Shown: piece after piece, positions 9,166 to 54,387 of the stretch | Position numbering within the stretch: the first letter of the stretch is position 1 | Layout of the letters: the number at the start of each line of letters is the position of its first letter | Source of the DNA: Nanobdellota archaeon | GTDB taxonomy: Archaea; Nanobdellota; Nanobdellia; Pacearchaeales; GW2011-AR1 | Direction of reading: 5' to 3' | DNA length: 64,000 nucleotides | Assembly: GCA_024654505.1 (NCBI GenBank) | Contig: JANLHN010000003.1 | Coordinates: 132,314 to 196,313, forward strand | Notes under the pieces: generated by a model | The model's database searches: none | What the model was told of the DNA's origin: nothing | What the model saw: only the letters and a program-made list of their open reading frames with translations | Position numbers and translations under genes: made by a program

Positions 9166-9930
9166 ATGGATAGTAAGGAATGGGACGGTATTTCTAAAGA
9201 TTATTACACAGAGATACTCAGTCCTATAAGGGACAGCCAGAATAGTCCTTTGCTTAATGATTTAAAAATTATTAATCACAAAGAGAAACTATCTGTTGCT
9301 GACTTAGGTTGTGGACTTGGAGAGCTGTCACCTTTTTTGTCTAAATATTTTAATAGGGTTTTTTGTATGGACTTTTCACCCAAAATGATAGAAAGGGCAA
9401 AAAAGAGTAATAAAGACCTTTCTAATGTGGAATTTATTGTTCAAGATATATCTGACCTTAGAGAGTTCTATAATTCTTTTGATGTTATAACTTCCATTAA
9501 TTCAATACTTACACCAGACCTTCATAAAGTAGATAAGATATTTTTAGAGATATATAACTCTTTGAAACAAAAAGGGAAGTTTTTTTGCGTGTTACCTTCT
9601 ATGGAGGTTTTTTCTTATGAATCACTTCTTTTAGCACATGAGGAGATTGATAAAAAACATGAGAAAAAAATAGAAGACGTAAGAAAAATAGTGAGAAGTT
9701 TTATTAAAAGGAAGGAACATGATTTTTTACTTGGAATAACAAATTTTGAGGGAAAACAAAAAGCATATTATCGTTTTGAGATATTATGGCGACTAAATAA
9801 GGCTGGATTTAAAAATATAATAATCAAAAAGATTTTTTATCCTTGGGAAGAATTTGAGAAGGCTGGACAAAAAGCATTCCCTGATGAAGAAATGCTTCCT
9901 TGGGATTGGTATGTGATTGCGGATAAGTGA
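9166..9930 (+). CDS. Class I SAM-dependent methyltransferase
   Basis: The SAM-binding motif is VADLGCGLGELS. The stop codon TGA at 9928-9930 lies inside a tRNA 3'-end-mimic repeat. Confidence 0.6.
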   Translation: MDSKEWDGISKDYYTEILSPIRDSQNSPLLNDLKIINHKEKLSVADLGCGLGELSPFLSKYFNRVFCMDFSPKMIERAKKSNKDLSNVEFIVQDISDLREFYNSFDVITSINSILTPDLHKVDKIFLEIYNSLKQKGKFFCVLPSMEVFSYESLLLAHEEIDKKHEKKIEDVRKIVRSFIKRKEHDFLLGITNFEGKQKAYYRFEILWRLNKAGFKNIIIKKIFYPWEEFEKAGQKAFPDEEMLPWDWYVIADK

Positions 9931-9972
9931 TACGCCCACACCCTGCTCAAAGATACGCCCACACCAGGAATC
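9929..9972. repeat. Direct repeats mimicking a tRNA 3' end (GATACGCCCACACC...)
   Basis: The plus strand reads gatacgcccacaccctgctcaaa + gatacgcccacaccaggaatc. Each copy is the reverse complement of a ...GGGTGTGGGCG tRNA 3' acceptor end. Confidence 0.6.
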
Positions 9973-10058
9973 TGTTCGCATTTCACTCTTCTCTCAAAAT
10001 ATTTGTAGTAGTTCGAGAAGAGCAAAGATGCTCAAACCTGGACCCAGGTTCGAAGATA

Positions 10059-10139
10059 CGCCCATACCAGGAATCGAACCTGGGTACCCCGAAGGGTCAA
10101 GATTTCCAATCTTGTGCAATACCATTATGCGATGTGGGC
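10059..10139 (-). tRNA. tRNA-Ser (anticodon GGA)
   Basis: An 81-nt cloverleaf with acceptor GCCCACA/TATGGGC (one C-A mismatch). The anticodon stem is CAAGA/TCTTG with loop TTGGAAA. A long variable arm ACCCTTCGGGGTAC is present and the T arm is CCAGG-TTCGATT-CCTGG. Discriminator is G and no CCA is encoded. Confidence 0.7.
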
Positions 10140-10175
10140 TTATTATTACAGAATAAAATTAGTTTTTAAGGTTTT

Positions 10176-10435
10176 ACGCCCACACCCTGCTCAAAGATAC
10201 GCCCACACCCTGCTCAAAGATACGCCCACACCCTGCTCGCCTTTAGGTCTGCAATAATCTTTTCATTTGTTCAGACCTAAAAGCTCGGCACCCATTTGGT
10301 GTACCTCTGTTGAGGCAAATCGAAGGTTCGATGTCCGGGAAAACGCCCACACCCTGCTCGCCTTTAGGTCTGCAATAATCTTTTCATTTGTTCAGACCTA
10401 AAAGCTCGGAATCGAAGGTTCGATGTCCGGGAAAA
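10176..10435. repeat. Array of tRNA 3'-end mimics: 23-nt tandem units plus two 92/122-nt hairpin-containing units
   Basis: The 23-nt unit acgcccacaccctgctcaaagat is repeated 2.7 times (10176-10238). Two longer units follow, each starting acgcccacaccctgctcgcc and containing the inverted repeat TAGGTCTG...CAGACCTA. The proximal unit (10222-10342) carries a 30-nt insertion. Confidence 0.65.
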
Positions 10436-10516
10436 CGCCCACACCCGGAATCGAACCGGGATGCCAGTGAAGGCCCGGTTTTCTAGACCGGTGCAATACC
10501 ATTATACGATGTGGGC
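10436..10516 (-). tRNA. Class II tRNA (long variable arm), nominal anticodon AGA (Ser-like; atypical A34)
   Basis: An 81-nt cloverleaf with acceptor GCCCACA/TGTGGGC. The anticodon stem is CCGGT/ACCGG with loop CTAGAAA. The variable arm has a GCC..GGC stem and the T arm is CCCGG-TTCGATT-CCGGG. The first 25 nt are near-identical to tRNA-Ser(GGA). Confidence 0.5.
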
Positions 10517-10559
10517 TTTGCTTATAATTGATGAAGAAAATATGTTTTTAAAAGTTGGC

Positions 10560-18254: not shown

Positions 18255-18420
18255 AATTTAAGGCCCTTTAAAAAGCTTGTGTTTGTTGTTATTATTGAGT
18301 GATTAAATCTTCTTAAATAATCAAAGGAGTTAAACTTAAAAACTAAATCTCCAAAGAATATTTATGCCTCAATAGTATAAAGTAACATCCTAGATGTTGT
18401 ATGAATACAATTGAAGCAAA

Positions 18421-18492
18421 GCCTCAATAGTATAGTGGTTAGTACGTGGCCCTGTCGCGGCCAAGATCCGGGTTCAATCCCCGGTTGGGGCG
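18421..18492 (+). tRNA. tRNA-Asp (anticodon GUC)
   Basis: A 72-nt cloverleaf with acceptor GCCTCAA/TTGGGGC. The anticodon stem is TGGCC/GGCCA with loop CTGTCGC. The T arm is CCGGG-TTCAATC-CCCGG and the discriminator is G. Confidence 0.8.
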
Positions 18493-22097: not shown

Positions 22098-25000
22098 TTA
22101 TAATAGTTTCTTTATCTCTCGATCTAGTCTTTTTACTTCAGAATCTTCATTTTTCCACCAGTCCCTACTCCAAACTCGAAGAATGTTCCATCCGGAATTT
22201 TCCAAAATTTCTTGTCTATAAATGTCTCTTTCCTTTGCACTTTTTGATGAGTGGTACATTGCACCATCGCACTCTATCCCAACAATAAATTTTCCTTTTT
22301 GCTTTGGATGAACAACTGCAAGGTCAATCTTATATCCTTTACATCCAACTTGAGTTTTTATTTTATAGCCAATTTTAGACAGGGCATCCCTAACCTCTCC
22401 CTCAAAATCACTATCGTATGATTCAAATTCTGGCGATTCGGCATCTATTTTAAGTTCATTTAGAGAATCTAACTTTTCATCAGCCCTCTTGTAGTCTCCT
22501 TCAGAGATATACTTAGAATAGCTGAGGTAATCTCGCAAGAGTTTTGGCCCATCGAACGAACCACTATATTTCAATTCACTTGGGTCAAACGAGTTAAATA
22601 TTATTATTTTCTCTCTAGCTCTGCTTATTGCAACGTTAAGCCTATTAGGTCCATAAGGGCCGTTAAGAGGACCAAACATATATCTAAATTTCTTTGTTTT
22701 ATCGAAACCATAACTTATTGAAAAGATAATGATATCTCTTTCATCTCCCTGAACATTCTCAATATTTTTAACAAATATACCCGTATATTCATCTTGATTA
22801 TATCTTTCTCTTTCAGAATCGAGTAATTTTGCAAATAAGGGGTCCTTTGCAGCTTCTTCATCTAAAAGTTCTTCAATCAAGTCTTTTTGTTTAACATTAA
22901 AGGTTATAACTCCAAGAGTTGGCTGTTCTTTAGTTTTGAGTAACTCTTTTATCTTTTTTACAACTTCTTCAGCCTCTCGAAGGTTTATGCCCGAGTCCCA
23001 AATTCCCCTAACATTTTTGTATTCTATTGCCGTATCTTTCTTAACTTTATTTTTTGGAATAACCCTTAACGACTTATCATAGAAAGCATAGTTTGAAAAA
23101 TTAATTAATTCTTCATGGTTTGACCTATAATGGTATATAAGACGTTTTCCAGGAAGTGTTGTTTTTGCTCTTTCAAGTAAAGACTCGTTTTCTAGTAGCT
23201 GTTGTTCATCATAGTCTTCAAATTTTTCATCTTCAAATTCTTCTTGGGAAGCCATAAAAAATCTGCTTGGAGGCAACTGTTTTTCATCGCCAGCAACGAT
23301 TAAACTTTTTCCACGATTTATAGAAGGGATTGCCTTTTCAAGTCTTGTTTGTGAAGCTTCATCAAAAATAACTACATCAAAAAGATCTTTCTTTAAGGGG
23401 AATATAGATGATACTGTTTCTGGTGAACACATCCAACAAGGAAATAACTCTAAAAGACCTTCCCTATAGAATACATTGAAAAGTTCTCTAAACGTTAGTC
23501 TCTTTCTCTGTTTATTTAATTCATGAACCAGCCCTCTTAAATTATTATAATTTTTTCTTCTCCCATCATAATCATAATTTTTCCACTTTAGTTCGCTATA
23601 TTTATTCATAAAAGACTCATAGATGACTTCCGGTATAACTTCAATTTTTTTATTTATTAATTCAACTAATTTATTTTTGATTGATTGATAAGTTTCATCA
23701 GAAAAACTTCGAATTATAGGGTCATTAGATTCTGATTCATTAATCCAATGAATGAAGAAGCTATTTTCTATTGTTTTCCTCCAGATAGGGGTCATGTCAT
23801 CTCCCAAGTTTTGGCGAATACTACTATAGCATAAATTGGCAATCTTATACTCTAAGTTAGTCAACTTCTCAAGATTAGAATCAAAAAGAACAATCTCATC
23901 TAACTCCCCAAACAACTCTTTTATTTTAACAAAAATGATTGAATTCTTTTCAAAATTGATGAAGTTTTTTTCAATAGACTCTAAAAACTCTTCTTTAAAT
24001 AATAGGCGAATAAAGCTTAAAGAATCTTTTAGACTCTTAAGGGGTTTTTCCAATAAGTTCCATCTTTCAATTAGTTTTTCAAAGTCTTCAGGCGAACGAA
24101 TTTTAGAGTATTTTGATTTTAAACTCCACCATTTAGAGTCGAATATTCTCGAGAACCTATTCTTCTCTTTATCTTTTAAAAACTTAAGTTCTTCAGAGAT
24201 GTTGAATAGTTCCTCAATATTTAATTTTCTCTTAAAATTAATTAATTTTAAATCACTTTTAAATTCTTTATTATAAAAAGTCTTTTCAAGATTTTCAAAA
24301 ACTTTTATTGTATTTGCTACCTTCTCTTTAAATTCTAGCTCGTCAAATTTAGTGCTAAATCTTTTTCTAAGATAAATCGGTGAATCACTTTTTTCATATT
24401 TATAAAATTGGTTTGCAATCTTAGATATGCTCTCACTATAGGTCTTTAAATCATTAAAACTAACTTTTTCAAATAATTCACCTTTGATGTCCAAGATTGG
24501 TTTTTGTTCCTTATTAGAATGTCGGTAGAGTGAGTATAGGCTTATACCATGTTTACCTTTATCATGTATTAAACTAATTAATTTTTTTAATTCTAAAAGA
24601 CCCATATCAAAAGATTTAGCTTTTTCAAGCATCTTCTTCATATTTGGCTCTCCAGAAAAGCCATCTACCCCATCATCCTTTAGGTCGTATGCATTTAATG
24701 TAGAGGCCATCTGCTTAAAAATTTGATTTCTATCATTTTGGGAATCGTGGATGAGCAGACAGTGTTTGCTTATGCCCTTAGAAGCTAGTCTATTCTTCAC
24801 AACATCAAGTGCAGCTCTTTTTTCACAGACCAATAATATCTTTTTATCTCTTAGTAAGTTATCTGCAATAAGATTAGTAATTACTTGAGATTTTCCCGTT
24901 CCAGGAGGACCATGGATTACTAATCCTTTACCAGTTCTAGATTTGATTAAAACTTGCTCTTGACTTATATCTGGCTTAGTTATAAAATAATTATCTGCCT

Positions 25001-25856
25001 CTGGGGAATCAATTAATTTTTCATCATCAAATCTTTCTTCAAGGTCTCTTTCAGTATTTTCTCCAAGTATCAACTTAGAAGAATCAGATAAACTTTTGTC
25101 TTTTATTAGTTCATCATAATCATTATTCATTGCACTATTAAGTTGACTAAATTCTCCCAAGATAGCATAGGGTAGAAATTCTATTTTCCCAGAAAGATTT
25201 TTAGGATGCTCATCTTTAATAAGTGGTTTTAATGAATCAATCTTTGTTTTTTTAAATGTGTTAATATTTGTTTCCATGTTCAATCCCTCAAACAATTGTA
25301 CTGACCATTCAATCAACTCTTCAGACTTCAAATCCTCAATTTTTTTTAAATCTTCTAAATTTAAATTTTTATAACCCTTATTATATTTATTAAAAGCAAT
25401 AAAGAATGTCTTGTTTATTTGAACTGAAGAATCTGGAAGAGGTTTTATAGTAACTTTTCTAGTCGCCCTGTTAAAGTCTATTTGAATTGGGACAAGAAAT
25501 AAAGGTGCTCTAAAAAAAGAACCTTCAGAAAAGTTTCCCTGTATAAATGGGTAACCTAAGAAGCATTCATGATAACCTTTCTCTTTAAGTATAAACTCTA
25601 CATCTCTCTTAAGATATAGAATGTCTTTTAGAATTCTCTCTTCCTCTTTATTTTTAACGTTAATATCAATGAGGTTAGCAGATTTATTTTCAAAAAAAAG
25701 CTTGTTAACTACTTGGATTGGCTGATCACTTTCTATGTTAGATAAATCAGAAATATCAAAGGTTTTCTTTTTTATAATTCTGGAAAGTCTAATTGCTCTA
25801 TTTCTTCGACTAATATCATTTAATCTCTCCTGATACTTCTTGAGAACTTTCTCCAT
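22098..25856 (-). CDS. DUF4011 – Upf1-like SF1B helicase – DUF559 (Vsr-like endonuclease) fusion protein
   Basis: Walker A is IHGPPGTGKS and the Walker B region is VIFDEASQT...VAGDEKQLPP. Motifs YRSNHEELINFSNYAFY, GVITFNVKQ and NVQGDERDIIIFS match the Upf1/DNA2 series. The C-terminus DLAVVHPKQKGKFIVGIECDGAMYH...ILRVW matches the DUF559 nuclease fold. The roughly 300-aa N-terminal domain resembles DUF4011. Confidence 0.75.
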   Translation of the reverse strand: MEKVLKKYQERLNDISRRNRAIRLSRIIKKKTFDISDLSNIESDQPIQVVNKLFFENKSANLIDINVKNKEEERILKDILYLKRDVEFILKEKGYHECFLGYPFIQGNFSEGSFFRAPLFLVPIQIDFNRATRKVTIKPLPDSSVQINKTFFIAFNKYNKGYKNLNLEDLKKIEDLKSEELIEWSVQLFEGLNMETNINTFKKTKIDSLKPLIKDEHPKNLSGKIEFLPYAILGEFSQLNSAMNNDYDELIKDKSLSDSSKLILGENTERDLEERFDDEKLIDSPEADNYFITKPDISQEQVLIKSRTGKGLVIHGPPGTGKSQVITNLIADNLLRDKKILLVCEKRAALDVVKNRLASKGISKHCLLIHDSQNDRNQIFKQMASTLNAYDLKDDGVDGFSGEPNMKKMLEKAKSFDMGLLELKKLISLIHDKGKHGISLYSLYRHSNKEQKPILDIKGELFEKVSFNDLKTYSESISKIANQFYKYEKSDSPIYLRKRFSTKFDELEFKEKVANTIKVFENLEKTFYNKEFKSDLKLINFKRKLNIEELFNISEELKFLKDKEKNRFSRIFDSKWWSLKSKYSKIRSPEDFEKLIERWNLLEKPLKSLKDSLSFIRLLFKEEFLESIEKNFINFEKNSIIFVKIKELFGELDEIVLFDSNLEKLTNLEYKIANLCYSSIRQNLGDDMTPIWRKTIENSFFIHWINESESNDPIIRSFSDETYQSIKNKLVELINKKIEVIPEVIYESFMNKYSELKWKNYDYDGRRKNYNNLRGLVHELNKQRKRLTFRELFNVFYREGLLELFPCWMCSPETVSSIFPLKKDLFDVVIFDEASQTRLEKAIPSINRGKSLIVAGDEKQLPPSRFFMASQEEFEDEKFEDYDEQQLLENESLLERAKTTLPGKRLIYHYRSNHEELINFSNYAFYDKSLRVIPKNKVKKDTAIEYKNVRGIWDSGINLREAEEVVKKIKELLKTKEQPTLGVITFNVKQKDLIEELLDEEAAKDPLFAKLLDSERERYNQDEYTGIFVKNIENVQGDERDIIIFSISYGFDKTKKFRYMFGPLNGPYGPNRLNVAISRAREKIIIFNSFDPSELKYSGSFDGPKLLRDYLSYSKYISEGDYKRADEKLDSLNELKIDAESPEFESYDSDFEGEVRDALSKIGYKIKTQVGCKGYKIDLAVVHPKQKGKFIVGIECDGAMYHSSKSAKERDIYRQEILENSGWNILRVWSRDWWKNEDSEVKRLDREIKKLL

Positions 25857-35619: not shown

Positions 35620-36393
35620 TTATCTGTTTCCTTTAACTTTTTGAAAATAGGGACAGATGTTTTGATAGCCGCAGTAATTACATAGTTGGCTAATGCATGC
35701 AGGAAATTCTGTTGCGTTCTCTATTCTCGCGATTTTAATCATAACTTCTTCTTGCAATTTGTGGAGCTTTTCTTCCGTTGGTTCAGCAATCACTTGTTGG
35801 TTGTGAGCCAGCATATTCCAAACGAGTTTTATAGAATTGGCTTCTGGAAAATTATTCCTTGCCCAGATAGAATACATTGCAAGTTGTTTGTCATTTTCAA
35901 TTTCCCATTGTTCTTTCATTTGGGAACTTGTTTTATGATCTATAATATAATAATTACCTTCAGAATCTTTAGCAAAAAGATCAATCCGAACATGCCATTC
36001 ATTGCCATCTGGAAGAGTCATCATGTCTCTAGTCTCTAGTCCAATAATTTTTAACTTGTCAAATGGTGTGTGTTTGTCATAATAATCTAATAAGAATTTT
36101 TCTCCTTTTTTTCTATAATCGTCTGGAGTCATATATTCTTTTACAATTAAAATGTCGTCGTTGTATTCATTATCCCATAAGTTATTGTAAAATCTTATAG
36201 TTTCTTCTTTAGATAGTTTAAATAAAGTTTCAATGGTTTTGTAGAGTTTTTCTAGTGTTTGATGAACTAAATTTCCCATAAATCCTTCAATTGTTGTAGG
36301 GAAATCTGGTTTTAGCCAGTCTATATACTTCAACTTATATTGATATGGGCACTGTTCAAAAGTGCTTATTTTAGAATGGGAATATCTCGCCAT
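35620..36393 (-). CDS. Cas4/RecB-like PD-(D/E)xK nuclease with Fe-S cluster
   Basis: An N-terminal Cys (QCPYQY) plus the C-terminal CISQLCNYCGYQNIC give the four-Cys cluster typical of Cas4/AddB. The catalytic core is RIDLF...IIDHKTS (D...D-x-K). Confidence 0.6.
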   Translation of the reverse strand: MARYSHSKISTFEQCPYQYKLKYIDWLKPDFPTTIEGFMGNLVHQTLEKLYKTIETLFKLSKEETIRFYNNLWDNEYNDDILIVKEYMTPDDYRKKGEKFLLDYYDKHTPFDKLKIIGLETRDMMTLPDGNEWHVRIDLFAKDSEGNYYIIDHKTSSQMKEQWEIENDKQLAMYSIWARNNFPEANSIKLVWNMLAHNQQVIAEPTEEKLHKLQEEVMIKIARIENATEFPACISQLCNYCGYQNICPYFQKVKGNR

Positions 36394-36769: not shown

Positions 36770-36887
36770 GCGTGGGTAGTATAAAGTAACAAACAAGTTG
36801 CTTCGAGAATACAACCCACAAATAAATCGCGTGGGTAGTATAAAGTAACGGCATAGCCGTTTCGAGAATACAACCCCCAAATAAATC
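36770..36887 (+). repeat. Two 59-nt-periodic pseudo-5'-end copies of tRNA-Gly (GCGTGGGTAGTATAAAGTAAC + spacer)
   Basis: Copies start at 36770 and 36829, and the real tRNA starts at 36888. In each copy the first 14 nt equal the tRNA 5' end, followed by AAAGTAAC instead of the D-loop. Confidence 0.7.
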
Positions 36888-36959
36888 GCGTGGGTAGTAT
36901 AGTGGTTATTATTCGACGTTGCCAACGTTGGGGCCCGGGTTCGATTCCCGGCCCGCGCA
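36888..36959 (+). tRNA. tRNA-Gly (anticodon GCC)
   Basis: A 72-nt cloverleaf with acceptor GCGTGGG/CCCGCGC. The anticodon stem is CGACG/CGTTG with loop TTGCCAA. The T arm is CCCGG-GTTCGATT-CCCGG and the discriminator is A. Confidence 0.8.
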
Positions 36960-37032
36960 TATTGGGGAATCGAACCCTGTGAGAGATTGGCCTCTGAGAG
37001 GTCTGCAACTTGTTGCCGAGGCCCGCGCATAT
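36960..37032 (+). repeat. 58-nt element plus duplicated tRNA-Gly 3' end (ggcccgcgcatat)
   Basis: The 13-nt direct repeat lies at 36950-36962 and 37020-37032. The intervening segment begins GGGGAATCGAACCC, the reverse complement of a T-arm, and contains the palindrome CCTCTGAGAGG. Confidence 0.6.
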
Positions 37033-45429: not shown

Positions 45430-45539
45430 GACAGCGACGGAGAATTTGTTTTTTTGTTTTTTGGATAAATCCCCGGCCGGCTCACAATTGGTGTACTTCT
45501 GCTGAAGCAAATCGAAAGTTCGATTCCGATATATTAGAA
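45430..45539. repeat. tRNA-Tyr downstream element with duplicated 3' end and conserved stem-loop module
   Basis: aatccccggcc (45468-45479) duplicates the tRNA 3' end at 45537-45550. The module TTGGTGTACTTCTGCTGAAGCAAATCGAAAGTTCGAT (45488-45529) matches 10296-10337 with compensatory stem changes. Confidence 0.55.
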
Positions 45540-45610
45540 TCCCCCCGGCCAGAATCGAACTGGCACATATCGGGCTACAGCCGAATGTTCTACCATTGAA
45601 CTACGGAGGG
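45540..45610 (-). tRNA. tRNA-Tyr (anticodon GUA)
   Basis: A 71-nt cloverleaf with acceptor CCCTCCG/CGGGGGG and the archaeal C1-G72 pair. The anticodon loop is CTGTAGC and the T arm is GCCAG-TTCGATT-CTGGC. Discriminator is A. Confidence 0.75.
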
Positions 45611-45668
45611 TTTGTCACCTACGGAATTCTCATGAAACGGCTATGCCGTTACTTTGAACTACGAAGGG
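45611..45668 (-). repeat. Pseudo-5'-end copy of tRNA-Tyr (CCCTTCGTAGTTCAAAGTAAC + spacer)
   Basis: The copy lies 58 nt upstream of the tRNA 5' end and contains GGCATAGCCGTTTC, also found upstream of tRNA-Gly. Confidence 0.6.
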
Positions 45669-46916: not shown

Positions 46917-47729
46917 TTATTTGAAGCTCTTGCTTATCCCTTCTTTCCAGAAACTTGGGAGAGGATTAGAAATAAATCCCCTGAATTCTCCCGAATAAAT
47001 GTAGGCAAGACCCCTGTCGGGGTTATATTTTTCAAACTTTTCTTGAGCATCTGAGTACATTTTCTGTATAATCTTCCTCTCAAACTCTTTTTGGAGAAGG
47101 GATGACTTCTTTAGCACTAAAAAATCTGCTTGTCTTAAGATATTAACTTCTAAATTTGAAGAATTTTGGGAAATAAAGAGAATGTTGAGATTTTTATGTC
47201 GAGATATTAAGATAAGTTGGCTGAGCATTTTGTTCGCATTACTCATTGAACTTCTTGAATTAAAGGTTATTCCCCCCTCATCAATAAGTACCCAAGAATC
47301 ATTTTCTAGTTCTGAAATGTCTGAAACTATTTTTATCCAGGATGGAAATTCTTCTGATTTAAATCCCAGAGCAAAACACTTTTTTTTAGATTTTGTGTAG
47401 ATATTTTCTAAAAACTTTACTCCAATTGCTGTTTTTCCAGAGCCCCTGGCCCCCAAGATAAGTCCTATTTGGCTATCTGATTTTGTAATTTTATCAAAGA
47501 AAGTTTTGTAATCCCCATCAATAGTTTCAATAATCTTGAAGGGAGAATATTTATATCCTATAGAATCTCTTTTTCTTTTTATCTCCTTCTCTTGAGAATC
47601 TTTTGATTCTTTTTCAATTTGTCTTATTTTTCCTTTAATAGCATAATAAGGGAGTTTTATAGTAAATAAGGCTCCTTTTCCTAAGTATTTCCAGAATATT
47701 GAATGTTTTTTCTTTTTTCTTTTTTCCAT
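46917..47729 (-). CDS. P-loop NTPase, Zot/packaging-ATPase-like
   Basis: Walker A is GARGSGKT and Walker B is WVLIDEGG. ISRHKNLNILFISQ is the sensor region. A basic roughly 90-aa N-terminal extension is present. Confidence 0.5.
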   Translation of the reverse strand: MEKRKKKKHSIFWKYLGKGALFTIKLPYYAIKGKIRQIEKESKDSQEKEIKRKRDSIGYKYSPFKIIETIDGDYKTFFDKITKSDSQIGLILGARGSGKTAIGVKFLENIYTKSKKKCFALGFKSEEFPSWIKIVSDISELENDSWVLIDEGGITFNSRSSMSNANKMLSQLILISRHKNLNILFISQNSSNLEVNILRQADFLVLKKSSLLQKEFERKIIQKMYSDAQEKFEKYNPDRGLAYIYSGEFRGFISNPLPSFWKEGISKSFK

Positions 47730-54154: not shown

Positions 54155-54262
54155 GAGAATGGCCCCACCAAGAATCTTCTCACAAAATGCATTTCACAAT
54201 TAATATTTTTCTGTTTGATTGTTCAAAGCGTTTTGTTCGCCTTGGGCACCCAAGTTCGAGAA
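54155..54262. repeat. tRNA-Val downstream element + duplicated 3' end (gagaatggccccaccaagaatc)
   Basis: The 22-nt direct repeat lies at 54155-54176 and 54258-54279. The element contains the palindrome CTTGGGTGCCCAAG, built from the tRNA T-stem sequence. Confidence 0.6.
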
Positions 54263-54333
54263 TGGCCCCACCAAGAATCGAACTTGGGCATTCTCGGTGT
54301 AAACGAGATGTTCTGCCATTAGACTATGGGGCC
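54263..54333 (-). tRNA. tRNA-Val (anticodon UAC)
   Basis: A 71-nt cloverleaf with acceptor GGCCCCA/TGGGGCC. The anticodon stem is TCTCG/CGAGA with loop TTTACAC. The T arm is CCAAG-TTCGATT-CTTGG and the discriminator is A. Confidence 0.8.
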
Positions 54334-54387
54334 ATAGCTCCGTTGTCTTCATGAAACATCTATGATGTTCCTTTAGACTATGGGGCC
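54334..54387 (-). repeat. Pseudo-5'-end copy of tRNA-Val (GGCCCCATAGTCTAAAGGAAC + spacer)
   Basis: The copy lies 54 nt upstream of the tRNA 5' end. AAAGGAAC replaces the D-loop. Confidence 0.6.

Follow-up and report, generated by a model that had tools for sequence, protein, structure and literature searches.

Hairpin units bracketed by copies of tRNA ends at a tandem serine tRNA locus and at other tRNA genes of a Nanobdellota archaeon

The serine tRNA locus

The 64-kb stretch of contig JANLHN010000003.1 from a Nanobdellota archaeon (hereafter the window, i.e. the whole 64,000 nucleotides analysed) carries on its minus strand two intact serine tRNA genes, each followed by short units that end with a copy of the tRNA 3' end. 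This serine array is the most elaborate case of a lineage-wide pattern, in which hairpin cassettes bracketed by duplicated tRNA ends (12-23 nt) adjoin the 3' or the 5' end of tRNA genes. Downstream of tRNA-Ser(AGA), in minus-strand sense, lie unit A of 92 nt, unit B of 121 nt and two units of 23 nt, and downstream of tRNA-Ser(GGA) a unit of 103 nt and then one of 23 nt, as follows:

10436..10516, minus strand: tRNA-Ser(AGA), intact (ARAGORN; Rfam, 51.2 bits)
10435->10344, minus strand: 3' unit A, 92 nt (RNA fold z = -3.4; weak match to the type-1 model, 25 bits)
10343->10223, minus strand: 3' unit B, 121 nt (fold z = -4.3; repeat families D3 and D4 100% identical)
10289..10317, minus strand: type-2 module TGCCTCAACAGAGGTACACCAAATGGGTG, two small hairpins, inside unit B (repeat comparison)
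10222->10200 and 10199->10177, minus strand: two minimal units of 23 nt, TATCTTTGAGCAG + GGTGTGGGCG (Tandem Repeats Finder)
10140..10176, minus strand: 37-nt spacer with the promoter box of tRNA-Ser(GGA), TTAAAAA (10163-10169), which ends 23 nt before +1
10059..10139, minus strand: tRNA-Ser(GGA), intact (ARAGORN; Rfam, 57 bits)
10058->9956, minus strand: 3' unit of tRNA-Ser(GGA), 103 nt (type-1 model R1, 57.8 bits; inverted repeat I3, 12/12)
9955->9933, minus strand: minimal unit of 23 nt, identical to those at 10177-10222 (repeat family D1, 100%)

All the serine units terminate with a duplicate of the 3' strands of T-stem and acceptor, discriminator included (…GGGTGTGGGCG), and the last 12 nt of tRNA-Ser(AGA), GGGTGTGGGCG followed by T, are the repeat of the array downstream. 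The 16-nt core CGCCCACACCCTGCTC has five exact copies (plus-strand starts 9933, 10177, 10200, 10223 and 10344) vs. 0.06 expected from shuffled sequences, a number reached in none of 100 shuffles. The repeated tRNA-Ser 3' ends reported in an earlier note on this DNA, both between and after the two genes, are real, since a search for T[GA]TGGGCG over 9926-10530 gave eight acceptor 3' strands, i.e. six more than the two borne by the tRNAs. Tandem Repeats Finder also confirmed the tandem 23-nt units (10175-10238, period 23, 2.8 copies, 100% identity) and detected a 121-nt period at 10222-10461, and the two copies noticed after tRNA-Ser(GGA) proved to belong to its 103-nt and 23-nt units. Other measurements of the earlier note held in kind and needed small corrections: the first of its two larger units does measure 92 nt, the second measures 121 nt rather than 122, the insertion that distinguishes them is of 29 nt (10289-10317) rather than 30, and the arms of the hairpin TAGGTCTG/CAGACCTA are about 20 nt apart rather than 18. 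Its placement of the stop codon of the neighbouring S-adenosylmethionine (SAM)-methyltransferase gene (9166-9930, Pfam) inside a core copy was mistaken, since this codon (9928-9930) adjoins the last 23-nt unit and overlaps just the 4-nt TATC after the last copy.

Unit A is composed of TTTT, CCCGG, a T-loop palindrome (ATCGAACC/TTCGATT), a hairpin with a GAGC/GCGAG base and the apex TAGGTCTG...CAGACCTA, and the copy of the T-stem 3'/acceptor 3' strand. Unit B is 100% identical to it, the 29-nt insertion being the sole difference. The unit of tRNA-Ser(GGA) starts with TATCT, an inverted copy of the variable loop, T-stem 5' strand and T-loop (TCGAACCTGGGT, 10042-10053) and a direct copy (CCAGGTTTGA), and continues with a type-1 module hairpin (9972-10035), ATT, CCTGG and TGTGGGCG. 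As for the 23-nt units, they combine the start of this Ser(GGA) unit (TATCTT), TGAGCAG and the repeat; they seem to have arisen by deletion, with the joint at the GAGCA motifs on the borders of the type-1 module. The acceptor 3' strand of tRNA-Ser(GGA) itself, TATGGGC, leaves a C6-A67 mismatch, whereas the displaced copy downstream, TGTGGGC, matches perfectly.

Recurrence at related loci

Metagenome contigs matching the 24-nt 5' half common to both tRNA-Ser genes of the window gave 116 related loci (designated by L and a number), and the tRNA set comprised the ARAGORN calls in all of them and in the window. In about 30 of the 116 loci, a second acceptor 3' copy lies 60 to 230 nt downstream, with any Ser anticodon. 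A near-exact copy of the last 11 nt was found within 400 nt downstream for 29 of 130 tRNA-Ser and for 7 of 24 other tRNAs (Gly, Met, Lys, Trp and Val); altogether, 3' copies were seen for Ser, Gly, Met, Lys, Trp, Val and Tyr. Among non-redundant tRNAs, with at most one mismatch and within 400 nt, the last 11 nt recur downstream in 33 of 137 cases vs. 2 upstream, and the first 11 nt upstream in 32 of 132 cases vs. 2 downstream, while the 11-mer from the middle of the tRNA, taken as control, has no copy at any tRNA. The chance expectation is about 0.003 per tRNA. About a quarter of the tRNAs have 3' copies, located 23 to 230 nt downstream, and about a quarter have 5' copies (nt 1 to 14/15), located 53 to 75 nt upstream. 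No copy of a tRNA end was found more than 400 nt from its gene in the 116 loci, and the spacing between copies never exceeds about 230 nt.

Tandem arrays of units occur at tRNA-Ser(AGA) of the window (four units), at the 5' end of its tRNA-Gly (two units) and in L121, L145, L158 and L166; the L121 unit has the flanks and the hairpin base of units A and B in common with them, with a different apex. The outer copies are often decayed, that of tRNA-Tyr being without two G and those of L125, L102, L170 and L181 carrying substitutions. The GGA-AGA tandem of the window is also present, free of units, in L143 and L164.

Several other features of these tRNA-Ser genes were observed. The tRNA-Ser(AGA), with A34, is unusual in archaea and often stands in tandem with tRNA-Ser(GGA) (the window, L087, L109, L121, L143, L164 and others), and the five Ser isoacceptors do not differ in their 24-nt 5' half, the D-arm being short and the variable arm 13-14 nt long. 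Anticodon-loop introns of 10 to about 137 nt are present in tRNA-Ser of L105, L151, L177, L181, L184, L187, L137 and L091; some consist of repeated CCTTCGGG hairpins, and a simple bulge-helix-bulge (BHB) detector missed most of them. In L099 and L183, an intact tRNA-Ser(AGA) is preceded, at about 60-220 nt, by a tRNA-Ser copy whose T-arm is split by a two-hairpin insert; this copy has no proximal 3' end, and its acceptor strands are mismatched (GCCCACA with TACGGGC).

Anatomy of the 3' units and origin of the repeats

In the following, L stands for the segment formed by the variable loop, T-stem 5' strand and T-loop, L' for its inverted copy, and R for what remains of the T-loop, the 3' strands of T-stem and acceptor, the discriminator and a few nucleotides beyond it. 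The frame of a 3' unit is the tRNA ending with L and R, a short spacer, L', a direct copy of L, one or several hairpin modules and a copy of R. L' begins with TCGAAC or GAATCGAAC and is exact to its host tRNA over 12 of 12 nt at Ser(GGA), 11 nt at Val and 12 nt at Gly; at tRNA-Met, where the T-loop is TTCAAAT, it reads GGATTTGAACC and thus tracks the T-loop variant. R starts at C56/G57 in eight repeats and in most inside the T-stem 3' strand (positions 61-64), and it ends 0 to 6 nt beyond the discriminator. The 3' repeats are mostly of 12-14 nt, with some of 16-23 nt, and the inserts between copies range from 11 to 200 nt. Repeats and inverted copies always match the host tRNA, while the modules are common to different tRNAs. 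Since the same cassette is thus found at different tRNAs with a repeat that matches the local one, the repeat is derived from the target and not carried as an attP site.

Counting 3' and 5' units together, end duplications are present at all six tRNAs of the window. Those of the four tRNAs other than serine are:

54160..54262, minus strand: 3' unit of tRNA-Val (tRNA at 54263-54333), R1 71.8 bits, direct repeat of 22 nt
54334..54387, minus strand: 5' unit of tRNA-Val, with a copy of nt 1-15, hairpin AAGGAACATCATAGATGTTTCATGA, an imperfect reverse complement of nt 13-1, and TAT
36770-36828 and 36829-36887, plus strand: tandem 5' units of tRNA-Gly, fold z = -3.5, common frame with different apical hairpins
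36960..37029, plus strand: 3' unit of tRNA-Gly (tRNA at 36888-36959), with an inverted T-arm copy GGGGAATCGAACCC, two hairpins and a copy of GGCCCGCGCA
45611..45668, minus strand: 5' unit of tRNA-Tyr, hairpin identical to that of the second tRNA-Gly 5' unit
45470..45539, minus strand: 3' unit of tRNA-Tyr (tRNA at 45540-45610), with a T-loop palindrome, a type-2 module and a truncated copy GGCCGGGGA
18366..18420, plus strand: 5' unit of tRNA-Asp (tRNA at 18421-18492), fold z = -4.5

No 3' unit was found at tRNA-Asp. The 3' unit of tRNA-Val reads, in order, TTC, an inverted T-arm copy (TCGAACTTGGG), CCCAAG, a type-1 module (54176-54240), ATT, CTTGG and TGGGGCCA.

The earlier note had regarded the locus as a candidate insertion hot spot, the copies being att sites left by tRNA-targeting integrases. 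The first part of this proposal is partly borne out, in that direct repeats bracket the inserts and form stacked arrays, with decay of the outer copies. The second part, which would make the copies debris of lost elements such as proviruses or plasmids, is largely refuted, and we regard it as very improbable. Some 3' repeats do run from the T-loop to the end of the tRNA, as in the T-loop class of att sites reportedly described by Williams in 2002, and in tRNA-Ser(GGA) the proximal and the displaced 3' end are not identical. Fragments of archaeal tRNAs derived from integrated elements are also known (PMC9897764, PMC3293823). On the other side, the 116 loci hold neither a kilobase-scale element nor a distant copy, no integrase or transposase was found among 26 open reading frames (ORFs) of the window scanned against Pfam, and one and the same cassette has different tRNA-specific repeats at Ser, Val, Lys, Gly and Tyr. 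Moreover, a 5' version is equally frequent and leaves the promoter outside, and excision by a recombinase is precise, without footprint. No viral or plasmid counterpart was found either: the 16-nt core had 32 matches among viral contigs (IMG/VR), all attributable to chance in high-GC phages, the type-2 module had none, patterns of the type-1 module had one chance match, in a coding region, or none, and blastn against phages and plasmids returned only a 35-mer of phage tRNA-Ser or nothing.

5' units and promoters

With S denoting the copy of tRNA nt 1-14/15 found upstream, and S' the same segment inverted, the frame of a 5' unit is S, AAGU, a 6-bp hairpin, UUCAUGA, S' (nt 13-1 of the local tRNA in imperfect reverse complement), approximately AAA, and the tRNA. 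Such units are found at tRNA-Asp, Gly (two), Tyr and Val of the window and at 34 places in loci L083 to L185, and 34 of 36 upstream copies are something other than a neighbouring tRNA gene. The repeat, with +1 as its first nucleotide, measures 14-15 nt in 28 of 33 cases. Across 12 aligned 5' units (Ser, Asp, Gly, Tyr and Val), pairing reaches 94.8% and 10 of 13 pairs are changed on both sides, a result obtained in 0 of 500 shuffles. In sequence, S' corresponds to the local 5' end in reverse complement and not to the D-stem 3' strand of the tRNA, always with an A opposite nt 9, and the apical hairpin AAGTAACGGCATAGCCGTTTC is identical at tRNA-Gly (second 5' unit) and tRNA-Tyr of the window, though their repeats differ. 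The occurrence of 5' and 3' units together at one tRNA is just slightly above chance.

Among tRNAs without a 5' unit, a TATA-like hexamer starts at -32 to -30 from +1 in 70 of 102 cases, and such a position implies leaderless transcripts for these genes. In the 28 tRNAs with a 5' unit, the TATA-like peak holds relative to the distal copy and not to the tRNA. From this fixed spacing to the distal 5' copy, transcription very probably begins at or beside +1, with the 5' unit read through as a structured leader. A fixed promoter spacing with a start at tRNA +1 is the arrangement of Nanoarchaeum, which is free of RNase P.

The promoter also bears on the other explanation offered in the earlier note, i.e. 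relics of split or permuted tRNA genes. If the units were exons of split, permuted or multi-intron tRNA genes and the outer copies the real tRNA ends, the outer 5' copy would stand where it does, at the preferred start distance of the promoter; in tRNA-Ser(GGA), pairing with the 5' strand is better for the outer 3' copy than for the proximal one, and L099 and L183 have an interrupted T-arm without a proximal copy. Such an origin is nonetheless hardly credible, for the genes are intact (51-64 bits), the distal copies are degenerate, being often truncated or mutated, and one gene has up to five 3' copies. A strict hBHBh' motif restoring a tRNA was found in neither 3' nor 5' units, with a detector of low sensitivity (one of eight canonical control introns), and the sole BHB matches paired a repeat with its own copy via palindromic 4-mers such as CTGG, GGCC and TCGA.

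The order of the copies, i.e. S, hairpin, S' and S at 5' ends and L…L'-L at 3' ends, is also what would be left by errors of replication or repair, in which fold-back and template switching at the palindromes of the D- and T-arms produce direct, inverted and direct copies in succession, possibly through an RNA or reverse-transcriptase intermediate. The self-complementary TCGA of the T-loop is the point from which L' starts, S' extends to the complement of +1, with A-rich nucleotides after it, and the boundaries of the repeats are those of the transcript. We nevertheless consider such errors an improbable source, as conserved modules that recur at different tRNAs and in different metagenomes are not expected of random errors, and the internal loops beside the hairpins are asymmetric yet conserved.

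Hairpin modules and covariation

The type-1 module, with the consensus GCGAACAATTCGCyTTGAAC…TGTGAAATGCrAATTGyGAGyAG, is an imperfect palindrome bordered by GARCA...GAGNA and was found after Ser, Val and Lys tRNAs in different metagenomes. Its 13 aligned copies form a long hairpin with 93.7% of cells paired and 11 of 15 pairs changed on both sides (0 of 500 shuffles), and with invariant G-A positions at the base (G3 A4 / G A). Run over 707 kb, the type-1 covariance model (R1) recovered 17 distinct strong copies at tRNA 3' ends. Only 2 of 19 copies lie away from tRNAs, both within a repeat of L123, and there is none elsewhere in the 64-kb window. Concerning orientation, 12 of 15 loci have the module in tRNA sense and 3 have it inverted. 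The repeat of L123 (1587-1936 and 5419-5766) is an intergenic sequence of about 350 nt in two copies, 80% identical and not adjacent to a tRNA, with long flanking inverted repeats and a central type-1 module.

The type-2 module consists of two small hairpins with a few compensatory changes, and is present, besides unit B, in the tRNA-Tyr unit, in L080, L128, L159 and L191, and alone, in an intergenic position, in L165. A third type, of two hairpins, occurs in L170 and in L099/L183. With permissive thresholds, Rfam 15 recognised only tRNAs, the best other match being SNORD56 (17.8 bits vs. a cut-off of 36), and the 3' units of tRNA-Val, Gly and Tyr gave no fold-energy signal. Inspection by eye led to the rejection of C/D-box, K-turn and hammerhead candidates (no conserved boxes, wrong bulge geometry) and of a primer-binding site (no CCA complement); the UGAUGAG string is confined to the units of Ser, where the antisense copy gives rise to it as a by-product.

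Conservation with covariation, which the earlier note had named beforehand as speaking for a structured RNA, was found for the hairpin modules and not for the tRNA-end copies. Such covariation is what would be expected if the units were functional leader and trailer domains of pre-tRNAs, each a protein-binding hairpin (of the G-A or AGUA/GAA type) set between sense and antisense copies of a tRNA segment, transcribed from the tRNA promoter and either steering the folding and maturation of the tRNA or freed as small RNAs by RNase P and RNase Z. We hold this for possible, though doubtful. It agrees with the strong covariation of the type-1 module and of the 5' unit, with the invariant G3 A4 / G A positions, with the compensated substitutions in L084/L181 at a decaying tRNA-end copy, with an S' that tracks the local tRNA and yet always has A opposite nt 9, with the fixed distance from the promoter to the distal 5' copy, with the prevailing sense orientation of the type-1 module (12 of 15) and with the significant fold z-scores. 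It agrees poorly with the sporadic presence of units at orthologous tRNAs, the three inverted modules, the several unrelated module types held by one frame, the arrays of up to four units that include hairpin-free ones of 23 nt, the decay of the tRNA-end copies, the conserved C-A mismatches in tRNA sense, the 3' units of Val, Gly and Tyr, whose folds are unremarkable, and the want of an Rfam family.

Genomic context of the window

The window has an archaeal-type S10 gene, a class-I tRNA-Tyr of 71 nt and a G+C content of 31-38%, which, together with the relatives of its ExoIII gene, point to an AT-rich, Woesearchaeota-like host of the DPANN type. Concerning the genes that flank the serine locus, the ExoIII gene has its best relatives in metagenome-assembled genomes (MAGs) of Woesearchaeota (63-65% identity), at loci without synteny and with no tRNAs nearby, and an exact-protein look-up of both flanking genes gave no match. 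Elsewhere, the minus strand codes for a 1252-aa superfamily-1 helicase fused to a REase_MTES_1575 nuclease domain (22098-25856), a Cas4-like PD-(D/E)XK nuclease located 500 nt from tRNA-Gly (35620-36393) and a protein with a weak match to a Zot-like ATPase (46917-47729). The segment 60001-62000 has a G+C fraction of 0.47 vs. about 0.34 elsewhere, and no Rfam match.

Proposed insertion of hairpin cassettes at tRNA ends

Taken together, the units may best be explained by small non-autonomous hairpin cassettes that insert beside the D-loop or the T-loop of tRNA genes with a target-derived duplication, in the manner of casposons, and that are then amplified locally by unequal recombination, an explanation for which we see about as much chance of being right as of being wrong. 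At the 3' end, insertion would take place after the T-loop or inside the T-stem 3' strand, and at the 5' end after nt 14/15 in the D-loop, each event leaving on its two sides direct repeats copied from the target, of 14-15 nt at the 5' end and, at the 3' end, mostly of 12-14 or 19-23 nt. Of the two copies, the one that adjoins the tRNA body would keep the gene intact, and the outer one would be a displaced remnant, left to decay. Repeated insertion, followed by unequal recombination or deletion between repeats, could then have produced the A/B pair and the 23-nt units. The staggered cuts would be made by a casposase-like integrase, presumably encoded elsewhere in the genome, with the D-loop or T-loop side acting as the 'leader' and the terminal segment of the tRNA as the duplicated target. 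The cassettes would be co-transcribed with the tRNA, since they lie between promoter and tRNA or directly after the tRNA, and would be removed as leader or trailer by the end-processing enzymes.

The casposase of A. boonei requires a 15-bp target, which becomes the duplication, and an adjacent 18 bp over the T-loop of a tRNA; it accepts short substrates, and tandem arrays of elements separated by the duplicated segment are predicted for it (PMC5137440, PMC6614799). The 14-15-nt repeats at 5' ends, the 12-14-nt class at 3' ends, the arrays and the sporadic presence of units fit this logic, as do the nested 29-nt indel, the two orientations of the type-1 module and the decay of outer copies.

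A number of observations weigh against insertion of this kind. A Pfam scan of 26 ORFs of the window gave no casposase, integrase or transposase, and inspection revealed no terminal inverted repeats common to the cassettes, a match being seen at tRNA-Val alone (TTCTC/GAGAA). The length of the 3' repeat is not constant, a simple staggered cut does not account for the inverted target copies S' and L', and the repeats are bounded just where the transcript ends lie (+1 and discriminator), for which an RNA-mediated process would be the more natural explanation. In tRNA-Ser(GGA), the mismatch is in the proximal and not in the distal copy, as would rather be expected of an imported 3' end than of a target duplication. 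Finally, double substitutions that preserve pairing, as in the orthologous units of L084 and L181, where the tRNA-end copy decays, and the invariant G-A motifs suggest selection in place, unlike a dead footprint. These unexplained features (S'/L', the 3' length, the enzyme, the transcript ends and the L084/L181 pairing) keep the functional-RNA alternative alive, and the two readings, cassette insertion and functional RNA, are not mutually exclusive.

Both could be joined in a single system, Cas1/casposase-like or RNA-templated, that would use the D-loop and T-loop as 'leaders' and write cassettes into both ends of tRNA genes as a record resembling a CRISPR array, each cassette being made of an antisense copy of the tRNA end and a protein-binding hairpin and expressed as a leader or trailer RNA that gates the folding or maturation of the tRNA. 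This we think unlikely; were it true, the promoters set for a start at +1 would imply a novel route of 5'-end maturation.

Comparison with known systems

Insertion of casposons and of CRISPR spacers resembles the present case by a duplication of about 14-15 bp, a length kept by most 5' repeats and less regularly by the 3' ones, beside a recognised 'leader' over the T-loop of a tRNA, by insertion on the leader side, by tandem arrays split by the duplicated segment and by the use of short artificial substrates (PMC5137440, PMC6614799). It differs in that no Cas1 or PolB gene was seen in the window, in that the inserts are hairpin cassettes of 11-200 nt without evident terminal inverted repeats, and in that the cassettes use the 5' (D-loop) and 3' (T-loop) ends of many tRNAs, with a variable 3' repeat and inverted target copies. 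Tyrosine-integrase elements, with their attL and attR, have in common with the units a direct repeat that runs from the T-loop or T-stem to the end of a tRNA whose gene stays intact, whereas the units are without element or integrase, have a target-derived repeat and a 5' version, and leave 23-230 nt between copies. Repetitive extragenic palindromes, bacterial interspersed mosaic elements and miniature inverted-repeat transposable elements (REP, BIME and MITE) are likewise short imperfect palindromes with compensatory changes, intergenic, found in both orientations, nested and clustered; unlike them, the modules stand strictly at tRNA termini (17 of 19 for type 1) and are accompanied by long tRNA-derived duplications instead of short fixed ones.

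Among RNA genes, the split, permuted and multi-intron tRNAs of Nanoarchaeum, Caldivirga and Thermoproteales offer archaeal hosts related to DPANN and interruptions in the D- and T-loops, but here the units stand beside complete genes, no BHB was found and the outer pieces decay. Dicistronic tRNA-small RNA genes also have a structured RNA module that uses the promoter and the end-processing of a tRNA; the units, however, have no C/D or H/ACA boxes and no Rfam match, and are flanked by tRNA-end and antisense copies. A full-text literature search returned papers on tRNA fragments that integrated elements leave behind, on split, permuted or intron-rich tRNAs and on casposons; a description of short hairpin cassettes set between duplicated tRNA ends on either side of DPANN tRNA genes was not among them, which is not proof of absence. 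As a known kind of event, the units would be classed with target-duplicating insertions at tRNA genes, with a modest chance that they are something more unusual.

Significance for DPANN archaea

For tRNA finders and annotators, many tRNA-end mimics and miniature tRNA-like hairpins are to be expected in DPANN genomes. In a lineage whose promoters imply a start at tRNA +1, the 5' units would leave structured leaders of 55-60 nt to be removed. If the proposed insertion of cassettes is true, the tRNA genes of a large uncultivated archaeal lineage would be routinely remodelled at both ends by target-copying cassettes, which would be a natural miniature counterpart of integration of the casposon/CRISPR type, and the interrupted and fragmented tRNA genes known from archaea could in part stem from this remodelling.

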